Shown here in pieces: positions 4,073-10,680 of a stretch of 64,000 nt of DNA. The DNA is taken from assembly GCA_945892765.1 (NCBI GenBank), contig CAMDDQ010000001.1:40486-104485 (forward strand), read 5' to 3'. This stretch comes from Asaia bogorensis (GTDB lineage: Bacteria > Pseudomonadota > Alphaproteobacteria > CACIAM-22H2). The notes beneath the pieces are model-generated. The model had not been told where the DNA came from, made no database searches, and worked only from the letters and a program-made list of their open reading frames with translations. Position 1 is the stretch's first letter; each line of letters starts with the position of its first letter. A program made the position numbers and the translations under genes.

Positions 4073-5016
4073 GCGAATTCCTTCCGAACCCCGAAACCGC
4101 GGACGCGGTCGCCGGCTGGCTCGAATGGCTGGCGACGGAACGCCGCGCCTCCCGCCACACTCTTTCCGCCTATCGCCACGACCTGCTCGCCTTCCTCGGC
4201 TTCATGGGTGGACATCTGGGCAGCGCCCAGTCCCCGGCCGATCTGGCGCTTCTCCGCACCGGCGATTTCCGAGCGTTCCTCGCCCGCCGCGCCGGCAAAG
4301 GCCTGACCGCCGCGACCAATGCCCGCGCGCTGTCGGTCCTGCGTTCGTTTTTTCGCTGGCTCGACCGCAACGGCCACGGCAAATGCGCCGGCCTCGGTGG
4401 ACTGCGCTCACCCAAGTTGCCGCGATCGGTGCCGCGCCCGTTGACCGTGGACGACGCGCGCAACGCGGTCGATCAGGTCGGCGATCTCAGCGACGAACCC
4501 TGGGTGGGTTTACGCGATACCGCGCTGCTTTGCCTGCTCTATGGATGCGGCCTGCGTATCGACGAGGCGTTGTCATTGAACCGCAGCGACATCGCGCCCC
4601 TGCTCCAGGGCGCGGACAGCCTGATCGTGCTCGGCAAAGGCCGTAAGCAGCGCATGGTCCCGGTTCTGCCCGCCGTGCGCGAGGCGCTGGCCGCCTATCT
4701 CGCTGTCTGCCCCCATGCCGCCGGCGTCACCGCGCCGGTGTTCTTCGGCATGCGCGGGAAACGCCTGCACGCCGGCATCGTGCAGAAACGGGTGCGAGAA
4801 CTGCGCGGCCTCATCGGCCTGCCCGACCGGGCCACGCCACACGCGCTGCGCCACAGCTTCGCCACACATCTGCTGGCCGCTGGCGGCGATCTGCGCGCCA
4901 TCCAGGAACTGCTCGGCCACGCCTCGCTGTCGACAACACAGCGCTACACCGAAATCGACGAAACCCAATTGCTCGCCGTCTACGACAAGGCGCATCCGCG
5001 AGCCCGTCGGGCGTAG
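4051..5016 (+). CDS. xerC: tyrosine recombinase XerC
   Basis: Carries HALRHSFATHLL and the LGHASLSTTQRYTEID catalytic Tyr motif. Start MAGPHDLSEF chosen by the usual XerC N-terminus. Confidence 0.9.
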   Translation: MAGPHDLSEFLPNPETADAVAGWLEWLATERRASRHTLSAYRHDLLAFLGFMGGHLGSAQSPADLALLRTGDFRAFLARRAGKGLTAATNARALSVLRSFFRWLDRNGHGKCAGLGGLRSPKLPRSVPRPLTVDDARNAVDQVGDLSDEPWVGLRDTALLCLLYGCGLRIDEALSLNRSDIAPLLQGADSLIVLGKGRKQRMVPVLPAVREALAAYLAVCPHAAGVTAPVFFGMRGKRLHAGIVQKRVRELRGLIGLPDRATPHALRHSFATHLLAAGGDLRAIQELLGHASLSTTQRYTEIDETQLLAVYDKAHPRARRA

Positions 5017-5573
5017 CCCGGCTGGGTTGGAATCAGCAAGGGGCAGTAGGGAAAGAAATGTGGGGGCCGCTTGGTCCCCACACCCCCAATAGTCCCGGGC
5101 AGGCCAGCTCCTCCGGCGCCTGCCTCGGACAATTCACGGCTTAGCGGGCTGAAGCCGGCAGTCCCGACCACAGCTCCACATCGTCGCGCTATACCCACCC
5201 GGAACACGCCGAATTTGAAGCTGTCGGCCGTGCGATAGGCGATGATCACGTTGAAGGGGAATTCCTGGCCGGTAAGGTCTTCCTTCAACACCTTGAAGAC
5301 GAGCCGGTTGCCCACAGGCTGGATGCGATTGTCGATCAGATGGTCGGTGTCGCCGTCCCAACGCACCCAATAGCCGAGATTGCTGCGCTGCAGCAGCAAA
5401 TTGCCCCAGGGTTTGGCGATGACAAAGGTGGCGAGCGGCTGATCGCCGTGCAGATCGATTTCGCGAACGATCTCGGCGGCCTCCGGCCGAATGGCGAGCG
5501 GCGCCAGGATCGCGCCTTCAACGCTCAACGTCTCGCTCCAGCCTGTGGCCGGAACGAGGAACGCTAACAACAT
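4980..5573 (-). CDS. hypothetical exported protein
   Basis: Signal-like N-terminus MLLAFLVPATGWS and alternating beta-strand-like sequence. The C-terminal ~45 residues are low-complexity and overlap the xerC 3' end, so the true stop is uncertain. Confidence 0.4.
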   Translation of the reverse strand: MLLAFLVPATGWSETLSVEGAILAPLAIRPEAAEIVREIDLHGDQPLATFVIAKPWGNLLLQRSNLGYWVRWDGDTDHLIDNRIQPVGNRLVFKVLKEDLTGQEFPFNVIIAYRTADSFKFGVFRVGIARRCGAVVGTAGFSPLSRELSEAGAGGAGLPGTIGGVGTKRPPHFFPYCPLLIPTQPGYARRARGCALS

Positions 5574-5698
5574 GAAAAAACAGGCAAATCCAAATTTGCA
5601 CGTACACGGCCTTCGGTCGTGTTCCGCTTGGATCGTGCGCCAACAGCGCCCCCCGGTTATCCCCCACTTTTTTTCCCGGCAAACAAAGCCGCGCCACT

Positions 5699-7402
5699 CT
5701 AATGCGGCGCCGCCGTTTGGCCAACCCGCGCCGCGCCGATGGTTCGCGGACGCATCGGTCCCATGGCCGGGGTGTGGAAGACGTGGCAGGCCACGCAGGT
5801 CGAAGGCACCAGCGCGGTCACGTCTTCACCGCCATGGCACCCACGGCAATTGGCGATGCCCGGTAGCAGGACGTCGGAACTGGCAACCGATTTGGGGGCG
5901 GCGTGGCAATCGACGCAGCCGGTGTTCTTGTGTTTGCTGTGATCGAATTTGCCCTTGGGCATCCAGGTCGTCGCCACCAGCACCGGCTTGACCCGGAAAT
6001 TGGGTCTCTCGTCGAGCCTGGTCGTCCGTTCGACGAAGTGGCAGCTCCCGCATATGCTCTTGCCGTAAACGATCTCGATGGTCGCATCGGCACGGCTGCG
6101 CGCCCAGGCCAGCGCTTCGGCGCGCGCCGCTTCCTCTAGCGGCGAGCCGGGACGGCGGCGCACGACGGCCGGCGCTTCGGGATCCTCGAAGCCGCCTTCG
6201 AGGGCGACGCGGCCGTAGAAATCGTTGAGAACATTGGCGACTTCGTCCGGTTTGCCATGCGGCACTTCGCGGTCGAGCGCGCGGGCCTCGAACTTCAATT
6301 TGTGGCAATCGCGGCAATCGGTCTCCATGTCCACCGCGCGCATGCCCACGCCGCCGGTCTCCGGCCGGTGGCAATCATTGCAGACCATTTTCTGCAACCC
6401 GGTGGGGCCCCGCACGCCGGCGTCCACCAAATGTTTGTCGTGCGGGAAGATCAGGTTGGAATTCTCCTTCAGCGCGGGATCGCCGACCGGCAGCCGCACC
6501 AATGTCCGGGTCGCCGGGTCGGTCACCACCGACGGCCGAAATTCGGGGTGATCGCGGCCGAAATCGCTGACATTGATCAGCTTGGTCGTAGGCACCATCG
6601 TGGTCAGCCGCACATGGCAGTCGTCGCACAAGGCCTGCGCCGTCTGGATCGCCGGCTGCCGGCCTTGATGTTCCTTGTGGCAAGACGCGCACCGGGTTTC
6701 TTCCAGGGCCGGCAGACGCACCGTCTTCACGTCGGCGTGGTGGGCGATGTCGTTGTGACAGGTTAGGCAGGCCTGGTCCTGGACCATGATGAACGGCCGC
6801 TCGTGGCAGGTTGTGCAATCAGTCGCGAAATATTTGTGCACACCGGAGATTTCGCCGGATTCCCATGACTTGTCCGCCGCGATCGGCATCGCGGTCATGC
6901 TCTTGTGAAGGTCGGGGATGAAGAAGGCGGCGACCGGAAGGATAAGAAAGAGCAACAGCACGGTGGCAAAGGCGGCCCAAGACAACACACGTTTGCTGAT
7001 CGCGGCATCACCCAAGCGGGCGTGGCTGCGTTGTGTCAGTTCAACGAGATCGTCGCCGAGCGGCTGCACCAGTTCGACGGTAACAGCGACGCCATAGCCG
7101 GGCGGCGCTTCCACGATTTCGATCTTGTAAGGACCGACGGCAATCGAGTCGCCTGGCTGGACGCGGCCGGAGTTGGCGGCGGCTCCGTTGATGGAGAGAT
7201 CGTTGGTGCCCACCGCGGAGACGTAGGACTGGCCGTCGCGCACATGCAGTTCGGCGTGGTCGAGCCCGATCCGCGGGTCGGGTAGATAGACTTCGTTCTT
7301 GGTGCCGCGGCCGATGCGAATGAATTCCACTGTGGCGTCTTGGTCGCGCCGGGAAACGCCACGATTGCCGCGCCGAGTCAGATAGCCGACCTGGACAAGC
7401 AC
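5699..7402 (-). CDS. FHA-domain / single-TM / decahaem cytochrome c fusion protein
   Basis: N-terminal FHA signature (TVEFIRIGRGTKNEVYLPDPRIGLDHAELHV), one TM (VLSWAAFATVLLLFLILPVAAFFIP), then ten CxxCH motifs (CTTCH, CLTCH, CASCH, CDDCH, CNDCH, CRDCH, CGSCH, CVDCH, CRGCH, CVACH). Confidence 0.8.
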   Translation of the reverse strand: MLVQVGYLTRRGNRGVSRRDQDATVEFIRIGRGTKNEVYLPDPRIGLDHAELHVRDGQSYVSAVGTNDLSINGAAANSGRVQPGDSIAVGPYKIEIVEAPPGYGVAVTVELVQPLGDDLVELTQRSHARLGDAAISKRVLSWAAFATVLLLFLILPVAAFFIPDLHKSMTAMPIAADKSWESGEISGVHKYFATDCTTCHERPFIMVQDQACLTCHNDIAHHADVKTVRLPALEETRCASCHKEHQGRQPAIQTAQALCDDCHVRLTTMVPTTKLINVSDFGRDHPEFRPSVVTDPATRTLVRLPVGDPALKENSNLIFPHDKHLVDAGVRGPTGLQKMVCNDCHRPETGGVGMRAVDMETDCRDCHKLKFEARALDREVPHGKPDEVANVLNDFYGRVALEGGFEDPEAPAVVRRRPGSPLEEAARAEALAWARSRADATIEIVYGKSICGSCHFVERTTRLDERPNFRVKPVLVATTWMPKGKFDHSKHKNTGCVDCHAAPKSVASSDVLLPGIANCRGCHGGEDVTALVPSTCVACHVFHTPAMGPMRPRTIGAARVGQTAAPH

Positions 7403-7426: not shown

Positions 7427-8257
7427 TTACCAGTAGAAGAAAACAGAGAAGACGTGGGTGGTCAGGGCCGCCAGAAGGCCGACCGACAACGGCACGTGGA
7501 AAATCAGCCAAATTTCCAGGAATGCACGGTATTGCACGTCGCGCCGCGCGCGACCGACGAGGTCGTCCTTACGGCTCAACAACGTCAGCAACTTACGAAC
7601 GGCGACGGCGTCTTCAACCGAAACCTTGGTCGCCAGTTGCTTGATCCTGGCCAACGCGCGGGCCGTCGGGCAATTGGGATCGCGCCCGGAAAGCTGACGC
7701 CACACCGACCCGCCGATCTGCGTATTGCGGCCGGAATCGAGCACCGCCCGCGTGATCTCGTCGGGCAATCCCATGGAGGCATCGCGGCTTTCCGAATCGA
7801 GCGCGGCGATGCGGGTGAAAATCTCGGTCAGCGTCAGGCCGCCGCGGTTCTGCGTCATCAACGCGGGATACCTTTGGTAGAAAAACACGCCGAACACCCC
7901 GGACAGGATGACCAGCATCATCAAGGTGTAGGCAAGCGTATGCACATTCCAGCCGAACTGGAACCCGGTGTGCAGCGTGGCCACGACGATCAGGGCGAGG
8001 CCGAGATAGACATGCGCCGAGAGCCAGCCCTGGAGCTTCGTTGGACCCAAATTGTACCGCCGCTTGCGCACGCCGAACCACATAAGCCAAAGGACCAAGA
8101 CCGCGCCGATCGTGCCCAGCACGTAGCCGAGCCAGGTGCCGCCATTGGGCGGGTCCATCGGGCTGTCGGCGGCATAGACGATCGCGGCCGCCAGGGCGCC
8201 CAGGACGGCCACCTTCAGATACCGGAAGTTGCGATAGACGAGATAGGATTGATGCAT
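7427..8257 (-). CDS. integral membrane protein, putative di-haem b-type cytochrome (~5 TM)
   Basis: Two TM helices each carry His-x13-His (SAHVYLGLALIVVATLHTGF and IFHVPLSVGLLAALTTHVF), the spacing used for bis-His ligation of two b haems in NarI/FdnI-like cytochromes. Confidence 0.55.
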   Translation of the reverse strand: MHQSYLVYRNFRYLKVAVLGALAAAIVYAADSPMDPPNGGTWLGYVLGTIGAVLVLWLMWFGVRKRRYNLGPTKLQGWLSAHVYLGLALIVVATLHTGFQFGWNVHTLAYTLMMLVILSGVFGVFFYQRYPALMTQNRGGLTLTEIFTRIAALDSESRDASMGLPDEITRAVLDSGRNTQIGGSVWRQLSGRDPNCPTARALARIKQLATKVSVEDAVAVRKLLTLLSRKDDLVGRARRDVQYRAFLEIWLIFHVPLSVGLLAALTTHVFSVFFYW

Positions 8258-8280: not shown

Positions 8281-10680
8281 TTAGAGACCCCGGTTAGAAA
8301 GCGAGAAGAACTCGTCCGGGCTAACACGAATGGCGGCGCCGGTCGGACAGGCCCGCACGCAGGACGGTCCGCCTTCGATGCCTTTGCACATGTCGCATTT
8401 CACCGCCATCTTGCGTTTGTTGGGGTCCTTTTTCTTGCCGTGGGTGGCTTCCCAGTCCTCGCCGGGTCCATGGCCCAGCCCAAACAACATCCAAGCCAGC
8501 AAACCCGGCTTGGCCGGCGGCTCCGCCGACATGTGGATGACGTGATAGGGACAGTTGCGCTCGCAATTGCCGCAGCCAATGCATTTTTCGTCGATGAACA
8601 CCTCGCCATTCGGCGAACGATGGATGGCGTCGGCCGGGCAGTCGGACATGCAGTGCGGATGTTCACAATGCCGGCACGACGTTGGCACATGGATCGAGGC
8701 ATAGGTCGGCCCAGCCTCGCGATCGAGCCGCGACACGCCGTGATGGGTCTCGGCGCAGGCCTTTTCGCAATTGTCGCACCGCACGCACAGCGATTCGTCG
8801 ATCAGCAGAACGTCAGTTGCCTCGCCCAACCCTTGATCGAGCAGGAACTGCATCAGGTTCGAGTGGTCGGGGCGGCCTTCCATGCGGACGTTTTCGACGA
8901 GCCGCGCTTGGAACCGAGCCTCGACCTCTACGCGCAACTCCGGCGAGCACTCGAGCAGGCCGCGAAAGGCGCCGCCGTCGATCTTTATGGCCTCCGTCGC
9001 CACCGCCGCCCGCACCGTGGCGGTGCGCCGGCTCTTGGTCAGCAGCGCCATTTCGCCGACATAGTGGCCAGCCGGAACATACGACAAAACCACGTCGCGG
9101 CCGCCCAGGCTGCGCGACACGGTCACCGACCCGCTGCGGATCAGATAGACGTTGTCGCCGACATCACCCTCCTTGATCAGCACGTCGCCCGCACTGAAGG
9201 ACTGGATGGTGGCCGTCCGCACGACATCGACGAGGTCGCGCTTGGAAACCTGCGGCGCCAGATGGGTCTGAACCTGGCGGATCATGGCGGTCTCGTCGAG
9301 AACACGTTTGGCCGCGGCGATCGAGCGAGTCAGCTTGATGACCTGCCTGCGCGGCGTCTCGATCAACACGCAATCGGCGCCCGCCACGACCGTCGCCGTG
9401 CGGCGGCGGCCGGAAATCAAACCCATCTCGCCGAAGAATTCGCCGGTCTTCAGCGTCACCTTGATCGCCGGGTTTTCGGCGCTGACCTGGACATCGACCG
9501 ACCCCGACAGGATCGAATAGAAGCTGTTGGAGTAATCGTTGCGCTTGAAAACGGTCTCGCCCTGCTTGGGCACATGGACGTCGCTGTCGAGCAGGAATTC
9601 TCGAAGCTGCAGCTTGGTCAGCGAGGAGAACATCGGCACGCGCTGTTGCACGCCTTCCAGGAACTGCGAGACCGTCACCCCTTGTAGGCCGGTGAGTTTT
9701 GCCTCAAGCAACGGCTCGTCGGCCGGCTTCACCTCATTCCCCAGGATGTACTCGATTACCTCATAGCCCTGGTTCATGCAGTGTTTGATTAGGGGATAAC
9801 CGGCCAGCGCGCCGATGATGTAAAGCCCCTTCACGTTCGATTCGTAGCTGTCGCTGACCCCCGGAACCGAGGCCGGATCGGCGTTGGGGAACACGATGCC
9901 GCAGGCTTCGACGAATTTGCGCGGCGGCAGGGCGCCAATACGAGCGATGACCCGGTGGCACTTGACCACCGCCTCACCCTCCGGGGTTTTCAGAAAAATG
10001 GCGCTGGGATCGGTCTCGACCTTAATGACCTTGGTGTTGAAATAACACTGGATGCGGCCGTCCTTGATGGCCGATTCGATCAGTGCGACGTTGCCCGCCT
10101 TGGCGCGGGCGAAATCGCCCATGACGTTGACGACGATGACCTCGTTCTGGGCGGCCAGCGCGATGGCGTTTTCGAGCCCGGCATCACCGGCGCCGATCAC
10201 AACGATGGTTTCGTCTTTGTATTCTTCTGGATCGTCGAGCTGGTACTGGACGTTGGGGCCGGTTTCGCCGGGTACGCCTAGGGTGCGGATATTGCCCTGC
10301 AATCCAATGGCGAGCACAACGGCATCGGCGGTGAGCGTTTGTTTGTTGGCGAGCGTGATCGTGAAGATCGCGCCGTCCTTCTTGATGCCCGCGACATCGG
10401 CGTTTTGGCGCAGGTTGAATTTCAACTCGCCGGTGCTTTTGTCCCAGGAACCGAGGATGGTTTCGCGGGCGCCTTCCTTGAATTGAAGATCGCTGCGCAG
10501 GGGCAGGACCTCCGGCGTCGCCATGACGTGTTTTTTCTTCTGATACTTGTAGATCGTATCGGAAAGATGGGTGGTGCGTTCGAGCAGGACATAAGACGCG
10601 CCGCGCTTGGCGGCACGCCCCGCCGCGCTTAATCCCGCCGGGCCCGATCCGACAATCGCGATCGCATAGTGTTCGGCCAT
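8281..10680 (-). CDS. NAD(P)/FAD pyridine-nucleotide-disulfide oxidoreductase fused to two cNMP-binding domains and multi-cluster 4Fe-4S ferredoxin domains
   Basis: GSGPAGLSAAG and VVIGAGDAGLENA Rossmann motifs; two CAP-type cNMP-binding segments (FGEMGLISGRRRTATVVA, VGEMALLTKSRRTATVRA); Cys clusters CVRCDNCEKAC, CRHCEHPHCMSDCP, CIGCGNCERNCP, CDMC...CVRACP. Confidence 0.8.
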   Translation of the reverse strand: MAEHYAIAIVGSGPAGLSAAGRAAKRGASYVLLERTTHLSDTIYKYQKKKHVMATPEVLPLRSDLQFKEGARETILGSWDKSTGELKFNLRQNADVAGIKKDGAIFTITLANKQTLTADAVVLAIGLQGNIRTLGVPGETGPNVQYQLDDPEEYKDETIVVIGAGDAGLENAIALAAQNEVIVVNVMGDFARAKAGNVALIESAIKDGRIQCYFNTKVIKVETDPSAIFLKTPEGEAVVKCHRVIARIGALPPRKFVEACGIVFPNADPASVPGVSDSYESNVKGLYIIGALAGYPLIKHCMNQGYEVIEYILGNEVKPADEPLLEAKLTGLQGVTVSQFLEGVQQRVPMFSSLTKLQLREFLLDSDVHVPKQGETVFKRNDYSNSFYSILSGSVDVQVSAENPAIKVTLKTGEFFGEMGLISGRRRTATVVAGADCVLIETPRRQVIKLTRSIAAAKRVLDETAMIRQVQTHLAPQVSKRDLVDVVRTATIQSFSAGDVLIKEGDVGDNVYLIRSGSVTVSRSLGGRDVVLSYVPAGHYVGEMALLTKSRRTATVRAAVATEAIKIDGGAFRGLLECSPELRVEVEARFQARLVENVRMEGRPDHSNLMQFLLDQGLGEATDVLLIDESLCVRCDNCEKACAETHHGVSRLDREAGPTYASIHVPTSCRHCEHPHCMSDCPADAIHRSPNGEVFIDEKCIGCGNCERNCPYHVIHMSAEPPAKPGLLAWMLFGLGHGPGEDWEATHGKKKDPNKRKMAVKCDMCKGIEGGPSCVRACPTGAAIRVSPDEFFSLSNRGL

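Follow-up and report, generated by a model that had tools for sequence, protein, structure and literature searches.

A five-helix membrane protein with two His-x13-His helices as a putative dihaem cytochrome b between a flavo-iron-sulfur protein and a decahaem cytochrome c

How could electrons cross the inner membrane between a cytoplasmic flavo-iron-sulfur protein and the periplasmic haems of a cytochrome c when the gene that lies between theirs encodes a membrane protein annotated only as hypothetical? This question is raised by a stretch of 64,000 nucleotides (nt) from Asaia bogorensis (NCBI GenBank assembly GCA_945892765.1, contig CAMDDQ010000001.1, positions 40,486 to 104,485 of the forward strand), which we call the window and whose first letter is position 1 for all coordinates given here. 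Three genes follow one another on its minus strand: gene A encodes the flavo-iron-sulfur protein, gene B a membrane protein of 276 amino acids (aa), and gene C a membrane-anchored decahaem cytochrome c. Our answer is that B is likely to be a five-helix dihaem cytochrome b that serves as an electron wire from A through B to C. The element of this answer in which we place the most confidence is that B binds two b haems through four His residues, which the sequences of its relatives make highly probable.

The first-pass annotation of this DNA had pointed to two predicted transmembrane (TM) helices in B, each with two His residues 14 positions apart, and this observation holds. Gene B starts with the ATG at 8257 and its product contains five hydrophobic segments in a Kyte-Doolittle scan, with both His motifs inside such segments. 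The stretch SAHVYLGLALIVVATLH holds H82 and H96, and FHVPLSVGLLAALTTH holds H254 and H268, in each case exactly 14 residues apart and within a helix of the AlphaFold2 model. This model, built from 83 homologues, has a mean predicted local distance difference test score (pLDDT) of 83.8 and a predicted template modelling score of 0.72, with helices at residues 12-30, 42-67, 72-97, 105-138 and 214-275 and a helical region at 143-209 as well. B has six His in total, and two or more H-x13-H pairs appear in 0.36% of 200,000 shuffles of its sequence, a frequency that suggests motifs not due to chance.

The topology of B can be predicted from its charges. Lys and Arg residues number 1, 0, 5, 0 and 20 along the successive non-membrane segments, the 5 being in the loop at residues 63-74 and the 20 in an insert of about 105 aa between TM4 and TM5. 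This distribution gives a predicted arrangement in which the N-terminus, loop 63-74 and insert 139-246 are cytoplasmic, and loops 31-41 and 98-104 and the C-terminus are outside. The N-in assignment is made because of the charge distribution and because one relative has A fused to the N-terminus of B, as described below. Both the hydropathy scan and the model have the polypeptide end at the periplasmic end of TM5. The insert is helical in the model (143-161, 166-178, 185-190, 197-209 and from 214 onward), and the block has pLDDT values of 83-95.

The case for haem binding is carried by the conservation of these residues in a large family. A word-indexed search with B returned more than 7500 homologues, all named 'hypothetical protein' except for one UniRef entry labelled 'ferric reductase like'. 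An exhaustive search gave 2136 cluster representatives at 50% identity, and a scan of GTDB species representatives, with one genome per species, found relatives of B in at least 584 species. Three alignments were used, with 22 relatives (A1), 83 relatives (A2) and 77 diverse full-length representatives at 31-57% identity (A3), together with a further sample of 150 cluster representatives at no more than 57% identity. The first-pass annotation had allowed for homologues that lack the His residues; instead the homologues retain all four, which are invariant in the 22, 83 and 77 aligned relatives and at least 96% conserved across the 150 representatives. Only six columns are invariant in the 77 representatives, and these are G48, H82, H96, G120, H254 and H268. 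The segment between H96 and H254 ranges in length from 94 to 236 residues among the representatives while the 14-residue register of the His stays fixed, being kept on TM3 in 143 of 144 representatives and on TM5 in 129 of 134.

Several further conserved features had not been mentioned by the first-pass annotation, namely the invariant G48 and G120, a fifth conserved His and the insert of about 105 aa between TM4 and TM5. The fifth His, H106, lies where TM4 begins on the periplasmic side, with 98% conservation, and H106-x13-G120 is found on this helix in 147 of 147 representatives. G62 is at least 92% conserved, and G48-x13-G62 is found on TM2 in 132 of 132. The non-ligand helices TM2 and TM4 repeat the 14-residue register of the ligand helices. 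Within the insert the conserved residues are T179, G182, G183, G191, C196, R238 and D240.

Counted from the cytoplasmic boundary of their helices under the N-in topology, both H82 and H254 come after about 8 residues, and both H96 and H268 after about 22. Because these depths match, the natural pairing would place an inner haem between H82 on TM3 and H254 on TM5, and an outer haem between H96 on TM3 and H268 on TM5. The possibility that the His residues sit in different leaflets from one another had been raised for this protein, and the predicted topology gives two depth-matched pairs, one per leaflet. The same topology puts G120 at the level of the inner haem and H106 and G44/G48 near the level of the outer haem. 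The direction in which the four His face had been left as a question as well, and here the answer is mixed. When the His are excluded from the calculation of the conservation moment, TM5 has a significantly conserved face from which H254 and H268 deviate by at most 28 degrees, which is supportive, while TM3 is conserved all round, with H82 and H96 at 30-70 degrees from a weak maximum, and is uninformative without its His. None of the four is on a variable helix face, and with the His omitted their offsets from the conserved face are at most 70 degrees.

This arrangement can be compared with those of known two-haem proteins. The ferric reductase domain (FRD) is defined by four His, two each on TM3 and TM5, with inner-inner and outer-outer haem pairing (PMC3591440), and B has the same distribution of four His in depth-matched pairs on five helices, where the FRD has six. 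In cytochrome b both haems are ligated by the alternate helices B and D of a four-helix bundle, with the His 14 residues apart (PMC7908018). Unlike the cytochrome b of bc1 and b6f complexes, B has no PEWY or other Qo or Qi motif, its partners are not a Rieske protein and cytochrome c1, and an extra N-terminal helix would invert the bundle if the predicted topology is right. The glycines on the non-ligand helices of cytochrome b keep a 14-residue register, and G48/G62 and H106/G120 would be their counterparts in B.

B is like the FRD superfamily (NOX/FRE, STEAP and MsrQ/YedZ; PF01794) in its N-in topology and in having a cytoplasmic TM4-TM5 loop. It would also be like it in function, as in our proposal for A and B a cytoplasmic flavin/NAD(P)H module donates electrons that are delivered outside, with the reductase a separate protein as it is for MsrQ. 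It differs from the FRD in its TM5 spacing of x13 (x13/x12 in NOX2), in the helical domain of about 105 aa where NOX proteins have a short loop, in having a donor, A, that carries an iron-sulfur (FeS) wire, and in having a multihaem cytochrome c, C, as the acceptor. Judging from these sequences, B may work like an FRD or a cytochrome b bundle, yet it is no demonstrable member of either family because of its five helices, its insert of about 105 residues and the lack of a significant sequence match.

The first-pass annotation had likened the His spacing to the geometry of NarI, FdnI and HydC. As a ligand layout this comparison has to be given up, since the structures of these proteins are not known to have two H-x13-H helices, and the layout of the FRD and cytochrome b takes its place. 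The ligand spacings of NarI are x9 and x17 on TM2 and TM5, and those of B are x13 and x13. FdnI, HydC and CybB have one His ligand on TM1, one on TM2 and two on TM4, whereas B has no conserved His on TM1 or TM2 and has conserved His on TM3 (two), TM4 (one) and TM5 (two). What can be kept is the analogy of architecture. NarGHI has a cytoplasmic multi-cluster FeS protein on a dihaem b subunit, and Tmc, Hmc and DsrMKJOP also have a periplasmic multihaem cytochrome c. These systems use quinones or CCG-domain proteins and do not have the FAD/NAD(P)H, cyclic nucleotide (cNMP) or forkhead-associated (FHA) domains of A and C. PF01292 proteins (b561, HydC, FdnI and CybB) are likewise membrane subunits with two b haems on which an FeS subunit docks, the role proposed for B, and it is this family that gives the best signal at the sequence level.

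That signal is a weak one. Against PF01292 (Ni_hydr_CYTB, cytochrome b561, the family of HydC, FdnI and CybB) B scores 17.7 bits with a gathering threshold of 30.1 (E 0.0032, residues 17-125 only). Weak matches to it are found in 78 of 83 and 63 of 77 relatives (best 3.8e-8), and precomputed Pfam domains have it on about 17 of the 120 closest homologues, which suggests that the family of B is at the fringe of this model. The match to PF01794 (Ferric_reduct) is not significant, at 10.5 bits with a cutoff of 28 (E 0.64), and weak matches occur in 9 of 77 relatives (best 1.4e-3). DUF4405 is matched weakly by 19 of 77 (best 4e-5). The recurrent weak Pfam signals across the relatives are confined to these three families, which belong to one Pfam clan of two-haem cytochromes, and PF01292 and Ferric_reduct are haem-b families by their Pfam descriptions. 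NarI (PF02665) has no match to B at E values up to 1 and is absent from the 25 families listed as most frequent among the 77 relatives, and Pfam's cytochrome b has no match to B at E values up to 1 either.

The context of gene B points to its partners. We compared the 80 best loci among the at least 584 species with a relative of B, the closest being from a Rhodospirillales metagenome-assembled genome (MAG) with 96% amino-acid identity. The B-C pair is present in every locus with room downstream, and the order A-B-C is present in about 60 of the 80 and is seen in Alpha-, Beta- and Gammaproteobacteria. In the window A and B are 23 nt apart and B and C are 24 nt apart, with a GGAG-rich ribosome-binding site before C. 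One relative of 1110 aa from a Magnetococcus sp. YQC-9 MAG (MEO5345780.1, P0163) has A fused directly to the N-terminus of B. The earlier placement of B between an FeS flavoprotein gene and a cytochrome c gene is confirmed by the domain content of the two neighbours, and its description as the cytochrome b link of a module is in line with the short spacing, the order kept across the three classes and the fusion.

Given these partners we can outline how the three proteins could work together. B would be an inner-membrane cytochrome b, N-in and C-out, with its two bis-His haems stacked across the membrane and with G48 on TM2 and G120 on TM4 leaving room for the porphyrins on the flanking helices. 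Electrons would pass from NAD(P)H to FAD, through the [4Fe-4S] chain of A to the inner and then the outer haem b, and on to the ten c-haems of C. From there they could go to periplasmic or outer partners, which in most relatives would be HbpS-like proteins, a giant multihaem protein and a tetrahaem cytochrome. The four ferredoxin Cys motifs of A resemble those of FeS subunits that dock on NarI or FdnI. As the FeS wire of A is cytoplasmic and the haems of C must be periplasmic, a B with two haems would be the only plausible conductor between them. The flow would be outward because NAD(P)H is far below the typical potentials of multihaem cytochromes c and because the membrane potential favours movement from the negative to the positive side; reverse flow would be uphill because both the potential difference and the membrane potential oppose it. 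Most likely the flow would also be independent of the quinone pool, as it is in NADPH oxidases and MsrQ. For this mechanism in full, from A through B to C, quinone-independent and outward, we see the chances as evenly balanced.

The flow may be regulated, as A has two cNMP domains and C an FHA domain on the cytoplasmic side. As pure speculation, the FHA domain of C, which is always encoded beside B, could read the insert of B, where the conserved T135, T179 and T198 are candidate phospho-targets. The widest form of the proposal is that A, B and C make up a split NOX-like, quinone-independent electron exporter of an uncharacterised class that sends low-potential electrons to the periplasm or surface under cNMP and phospho-threonine gating. 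We put this forward tentatively, and rate it as rather more doubtful than probable.

Related gene clusters have been described in the literature. The ptdABCDEFG operon of marine Alphaproteobacteria, from a 2024 preprint, encodes among others PtdE, which is a cNMP/4Fe-4S protein, PtdF, a membrane protein described as 'ferric reductase-like', and the decahaem cytochrome PtdG, and its authors call the function of the operon completely unknown (bioRxiv 10.1101/2023.11.21.568154). A nonahaem cluster of Ferrigenium straubiae, described in 2026, encodes a 4Fe-4S protein, a five-TM protein and an FHA-bearing multihaem cytochrome c with one TM helix. Its authors regard the pairing of FHA and multihaem domains as unusual, find no InterPro redox motif in the five-TM protein and suggest that it is a scaffold (bioRxiv 10.64898/2026.01.22.701106). 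A pangenome of the Gallionellaceae has a 'forkhead-associated protein' with ten CXXCH in 27 genomes. The gene order, domain content and five TM helices of our locus match the published ptd and Ferrigenium descriptions, and B is almost certainly of the same family and module as PtdF and the Ferrigenium five-TM protein, as matched by description. Unlike the ptd operon and the Ferrigenium cluster, the copy in the window has no porin and pentahaem genes. The signature of four His and two Gly was not identified in the ptd preprint, the Ferrigenium preprint, the pangenome or the RefSeq annotation.

A more distant likeness is to Geobacter, where in CbcL and CbcBA a dihaem b protein is beside or fused with a membrane-anchored periplasmic multihaem cytochrome c of 7-9 haems and electrons move outward (bioRxiv 10.1101/2021.04.15.440034). 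These systems, likened here by description, differ from ours in being menaquinol oxidases with FdnI- or HydC-like His patterns and in having no flavo-FeS partner or FHA domain. They suggest the main alternative, in which B would be the quinone-reactive dihaem subunit of a bc-type oxidoreductase that oxidises quinol or reduces quinone near one of its haems and exchanges electrons with C, with A an optional input or regulator. This is compatible with B being a dihaem protein and differs only in the partner. It would fit the finding that the invariant core of the module is B-C, since A is missing beside B in 13 loci with enough upstream sequence, and in the two of these examined B is the first gene, beside cytochrome c maturation or porin-like genes. 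The best Pfam signal of B is to PF01292, whose known members are quinone-reactive, the conserved polar residues Q100, N104 and H106 of a periplasmic loop could line a quinol site, and the Ferrigenium preprint considers a link to quinone (bioRxiv 10.64898/2026.01.22.701106). We still find a quinone partner unlikely. Directly upstream of B, about 60 of 80 loci encode a protein that combines a FAD/NAD(P)H domain with a four-motif FeS wire, and in one case it is fused to B; the His layout is not that of PF01292 and is of the ferric reductase domain type, which belongs to transmembrane carriers that are not quinone-reactive (PMC3591440); and no quinone-site motif was found in the sequence of B.

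Two other readings would take B out of electron transfer altogether. The five-TM protein of Ferrigenium was proposed to be a scaffold without a redox motif (bioRxiv 10.64898/2026.01.22.701106), and B might be such a cofactor-free scaffold or signalling protein, or its His might be ligands of a non-haem metal or part of a proton path. In favour of this, B has no match above threshold among curated families, motif libraries or solved structures, and regulation is suggested by the FHA and cNMP domains of the partners together with the large conserved insert on the cytoplasmic side. A scaffold, though, has no need of four His and two Gly in fixed register as the sole invariants over more than 2000 clusters. 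Buried His pairs at matched depths and about 21 Å apart are the classic signature of bis-His dihaem proteins (PMC3591440, PMC7908018), and a cofactor-free B would leave no path from the FeS clusters of A to the haems of C. It is also conceivable that B handles or delivers haem for the maturation of the decahaem protein, with its TM His pairs used as they are in CcmF and CcsBA, which hold haem with conserved TM and periplasmic His. Here one could cite that the B-C pair adjoins ccmH and ccmB in some Betaproteobacteria and that one of 77 members has a weak match to Cytochrom_C_asm (E 0.0033). B has no tryptophan-rich WWD motif and falls well short of CcmF and CcsBA in size, no ccm genes adjoin the module in the window or in most alphaproteobacterial loci, and the co-occurrence and fusion with a cytoplasmic NAD(P)H/FeS protein fit electron transfer and not haem export. 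Because of the invariant residues and the link to this cytoplasmic enzyme, we regard a scaffold as very improbable and give next to no credence to haem delivery.

The reading of B as a dihaem wire between A and C has weaknesses of its own, and the following points all weigh against it. B is below the Pfam gathering score for every family, and an NCBIfam scan of it gave nothing relevant. A sequence search of the PDB and two profile searches with A2 and A3 gave only coiled-coil noise on the cytoplasmic insert, and Foldseek with the model of B against the PDB gave nothing below an E value of 0.27. Alignment of A2 and A3 by hhalign gave a probability of 0.3-2.5% with E. coli MsrQ and less than 1% with E. 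coli CybB, each a weak test with a single-sequence template. No significantly conserved face is left on TM3 once its His are omitted. H106 is not accounted for by a simple four-ligand model; it might interact with a propionate, replace one of the haem ligands, form part of a quinol site or touch the decahaem protein. The A::B fusion is a singleton cluster from a MAG, on one contig, and may reflect either a genuine Rosetta-stone fusion or the loss of a stop codon. What the sequences show directly are the motifs and their conservation, the topology signals, the order of the genes and this one fusion; that B binds haem, how its His pair, the docking of A on B, the direction of flow and the independence from quinone are steps that we infer.

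The loci that lack A come from Betaproteobacteria (Casimicrobiaceae and Burkholderiales), from two MAGs of Alphaproteobacteria and from Arenimonas and Lysobacter. Whether A is adjacent or not, B keeps all five His and both Gly at 100%, and the conserved residues of the insert are identical in the two groups. Since B has an equally conserved insert in the 13 loci without A, a neighbouring A is not obligatory and B may have another cytoplasmic donor, which is a further point on the opposing side. An interpretation of the insert as purely a docking domain for A was dropped, since the insert is equally conserved where A is not adjacent. Loci without A among the Betaproteobacteria and Lysobacter are L053, L061, L066, L068, L069, L071, L073, L081 and L082 in our numbering; in L053 and L069 B is first in line, beside a divergent ccmH/ccmB or porin-like gene. 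One locus from Vicinamibacteria (L058) has too little upstream sequence to judge gene A.

The features of the locus are collected in Table 1. The protein encoded by gene A has a thioredoxin-reductase-like FAD/NAD(P)H domain (Pyr_redox) without CxxC, two cNMP_binding domains and a C-terminal 4Fe-4S ferredoxin domain. Because it has two GxGxxG Rossmann motifs and no CxxC in its sequence, it appears to resemble the ferredoxin:NAD(P) reductases of the thioredoxin reductase type. The ferredoxin domain has 16 Cys in four motifs, at residues 632, 669, 700 and 762 (CxxCxxCxxxC, CxxCx4CxxxCP, CxxCxxCxxxCP and CxxCx8CxxxCP). It resembles the DmsB/NrfC/HybA/DsrO type, and the motifs suggest that A carries up to four [4Fe-4S] clusters of the DmsB/NrfC/HybA type, compared to the two stated for PtdE in the literature. 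A hydropathy scan of A found no hydrophobic segment besides a Rossmann strand; a hydrophobic stretch, LLAWMLFGLG, is present between Cys motifs III and IV.

The product of gene C has a cytoplasmic FHA domain (about residues 28-98), one TM helix (residues 144-162) and a periplasmic decahaem part (residues 196-540) with 10 CXXCH, and its Pfam matches are FHA, Cytochrome_C7 and c3. Exactly at its stop codon there is a GC-rich hairpin with a T-run (5691-5710, minus strand). This terminator-like hairpin gives only a positional hint that A-B-C is one transcription unit, and a promoter and terminator scan found 6 sites with a hairpin and T-run where 6.6 were expected, which is no more than chance. 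Gene D, a frequent fourth gene of the module, has no Pfam match. It has 54% identity (tblastn) to a gene of 146 aa after the decahaem gene in another locus (L001), and homologues are found in 37 of 82 loci. The open reading frame (ORF) in which it lies crosses the synteny break, and its C-terminal 70 codons, on the far side, overlap xerC at its 3' end; the end of the D protein may be altered.

Table 1. Genes, helices, domains and conserved residues of the module and its distant companion in the window
Feature	Coordinates	Strand	Basis
Gene A, 799-aa cytoplasmic flavo-iron-sulfur protein	8281..10680	-	Pfam and NCBIfam matches, Cys motifs
cNMP domains of A	8881-9633	-	
Ferredoxin domain of A	8311-8808	-	Cys motifs
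Gene B, 276-aa five-helix membrane protein, putative dihaem cytochrome b	7427..8257	-	ORF and translation, AlphaFold2 model
TM1 of B, residues 12-30, predicted to run from in to out, without conserved His	8168..8224	-	hydropathy scan and AlphaFold2 helix 12-30
TM2 of B, residues 42-67, carries G48-x13-G62, followed by RKRR cytoplasmic loop	8057..8134	-	
G48	8114-8116	-	
G62	8072-8074	-	
TM3 of B, residues 72-97, carries H82 (predicted inner leaflet) and H96 (predicted outer leaflet)	7967..8044	-	
H82	8012-8014	-	
H96	7970-7972	-	
TM4 of B, residues 105-138, carries H106 at periplasmic end and invariant G120	7844..7945	-	
H106	7940-7942	-	
G120	7898-7900	-	
Cytoplasmic helical insert of B between TM4 and TM5, residues 139-246	7520..7843	-	AlphaFold2 helices, Lys/Arg count
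TM5 of B, residues 247-276, carries H254 (predicted inner leaflet) and H268 (predicted outer leaflet)	7430..7519	-	
H254	7496-7498	-	
H268	7454-7456	-	
Gene C, 567-aa protein with FHA domain, one TM helix and decahaem cytochrome c	5699..7402	-	Pfam, CXXCH count, TM helix
FHA domain of C	7109-7321	-	
Gene D, small conserved protein, frequent fourth gene of the module	5196..5471	-	inside ORF 4980-5573 (-), tblastn
Tetrahaem cytochrome c, c554-like, 447 aa	43484..44827	+	4 CXXCH; Pfam Cytochrome_C554 1.4e-10

In most loci the module continues with four genes, for proteins of about 146 aa, about 620 aa with three HbpS-like domains, about 616 aa without a Pfam match, and about 1290 aa with multihaem sites and LVIVD repeats. 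The window keeps only the small gene D and has no HbpS-like, 616-aa or giant multihaem gene. Its A-B-C-D block has 92% DNA identity to the Rhodospirillales MAG (L003, 4369-10075), and this similarity ends at 5186 and 10887, beyond which are xerC, DUF484 and priA on one side and a UbiX-like gene and cobalamin genes on the other. The MAG itself goes on to the three large genes. Truncation of the module, a rearrangement or a join made in assembly could each account for this difference, and a look-up of the exact sequence of B returned short contigs only, which gave no independent view of the downstream junction.

The tetrahaem gene is 33 kb from the module and is flanked in the window by prepilin peptidase and alginate-lyase-like genes. 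Homologues with 51-58% identity adjoin A-B-C in at least eight other genomes, those of L016, L017, L020, L035, L037, L045, L054 and L065, and in L033, L037 and L044 the module has penta- and tetrahaem genes beside it. The tetrahaem protein of the window is probably a distant companion and periplasmic partner of the module, comparable to PtdD.

The module is also found in cultured organisms, namely Sphingobium herbicidovorans, Oceanibacterium hippocampi and Zavarzinia. In Sphingobium herbicidovorans, a cultured strain with a complete genome, A-B-C are on the 959-kb megaplasmid pMSHV (L088, NZ_CP020539.1 804960-823787), where RefSeq has B (WP_037469326.1) as a 'hypothetical protein' between a 'cyclic nucleotide-binding domain-containing protein' and a 'cytochrome c3 family protein'. 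The module there is flanked by two metallophosphoesterase genes and a gene for a multihaem cytochrome of 1329 aa. The phosphoesterases could be cNMP phosphodiesterases or Ser/Thr phosphatases, matching the cNMP and FHA domains. The module is present on twelve Sphingobium replicons.

The family of B is widespread, has no relative above threshold in Pfam, NCBIfam or the PDB and is 'hypothetical' in RefSeq. A dihaem signature of four His and two Gly, if it binds haem as we propose, would supply the missing electron path from a cytoplasmic NAD(P)H/FeS enzyme to a periplasmic decahaem cytochrome, and the four His are clean targets for mutagenesis. The carriers are mostly Alpha-, Beta- and Gammaproteobacteria, many of them aerobes not known for extracellular electron transfer. 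If the proposal is true, many aerobic and denitrifying Proteobacteria would have a regulated export of cytoplasmic reducing power that does not depend on the quinone pool, among them the Alphaproteobacteria of marine oxygen-deficient zones and the iron-oxidising Gallionellaceae. It would then matter for extracellular electron transfer, for the cycling of iron and nitrogen and for redox repair in the periplasm.

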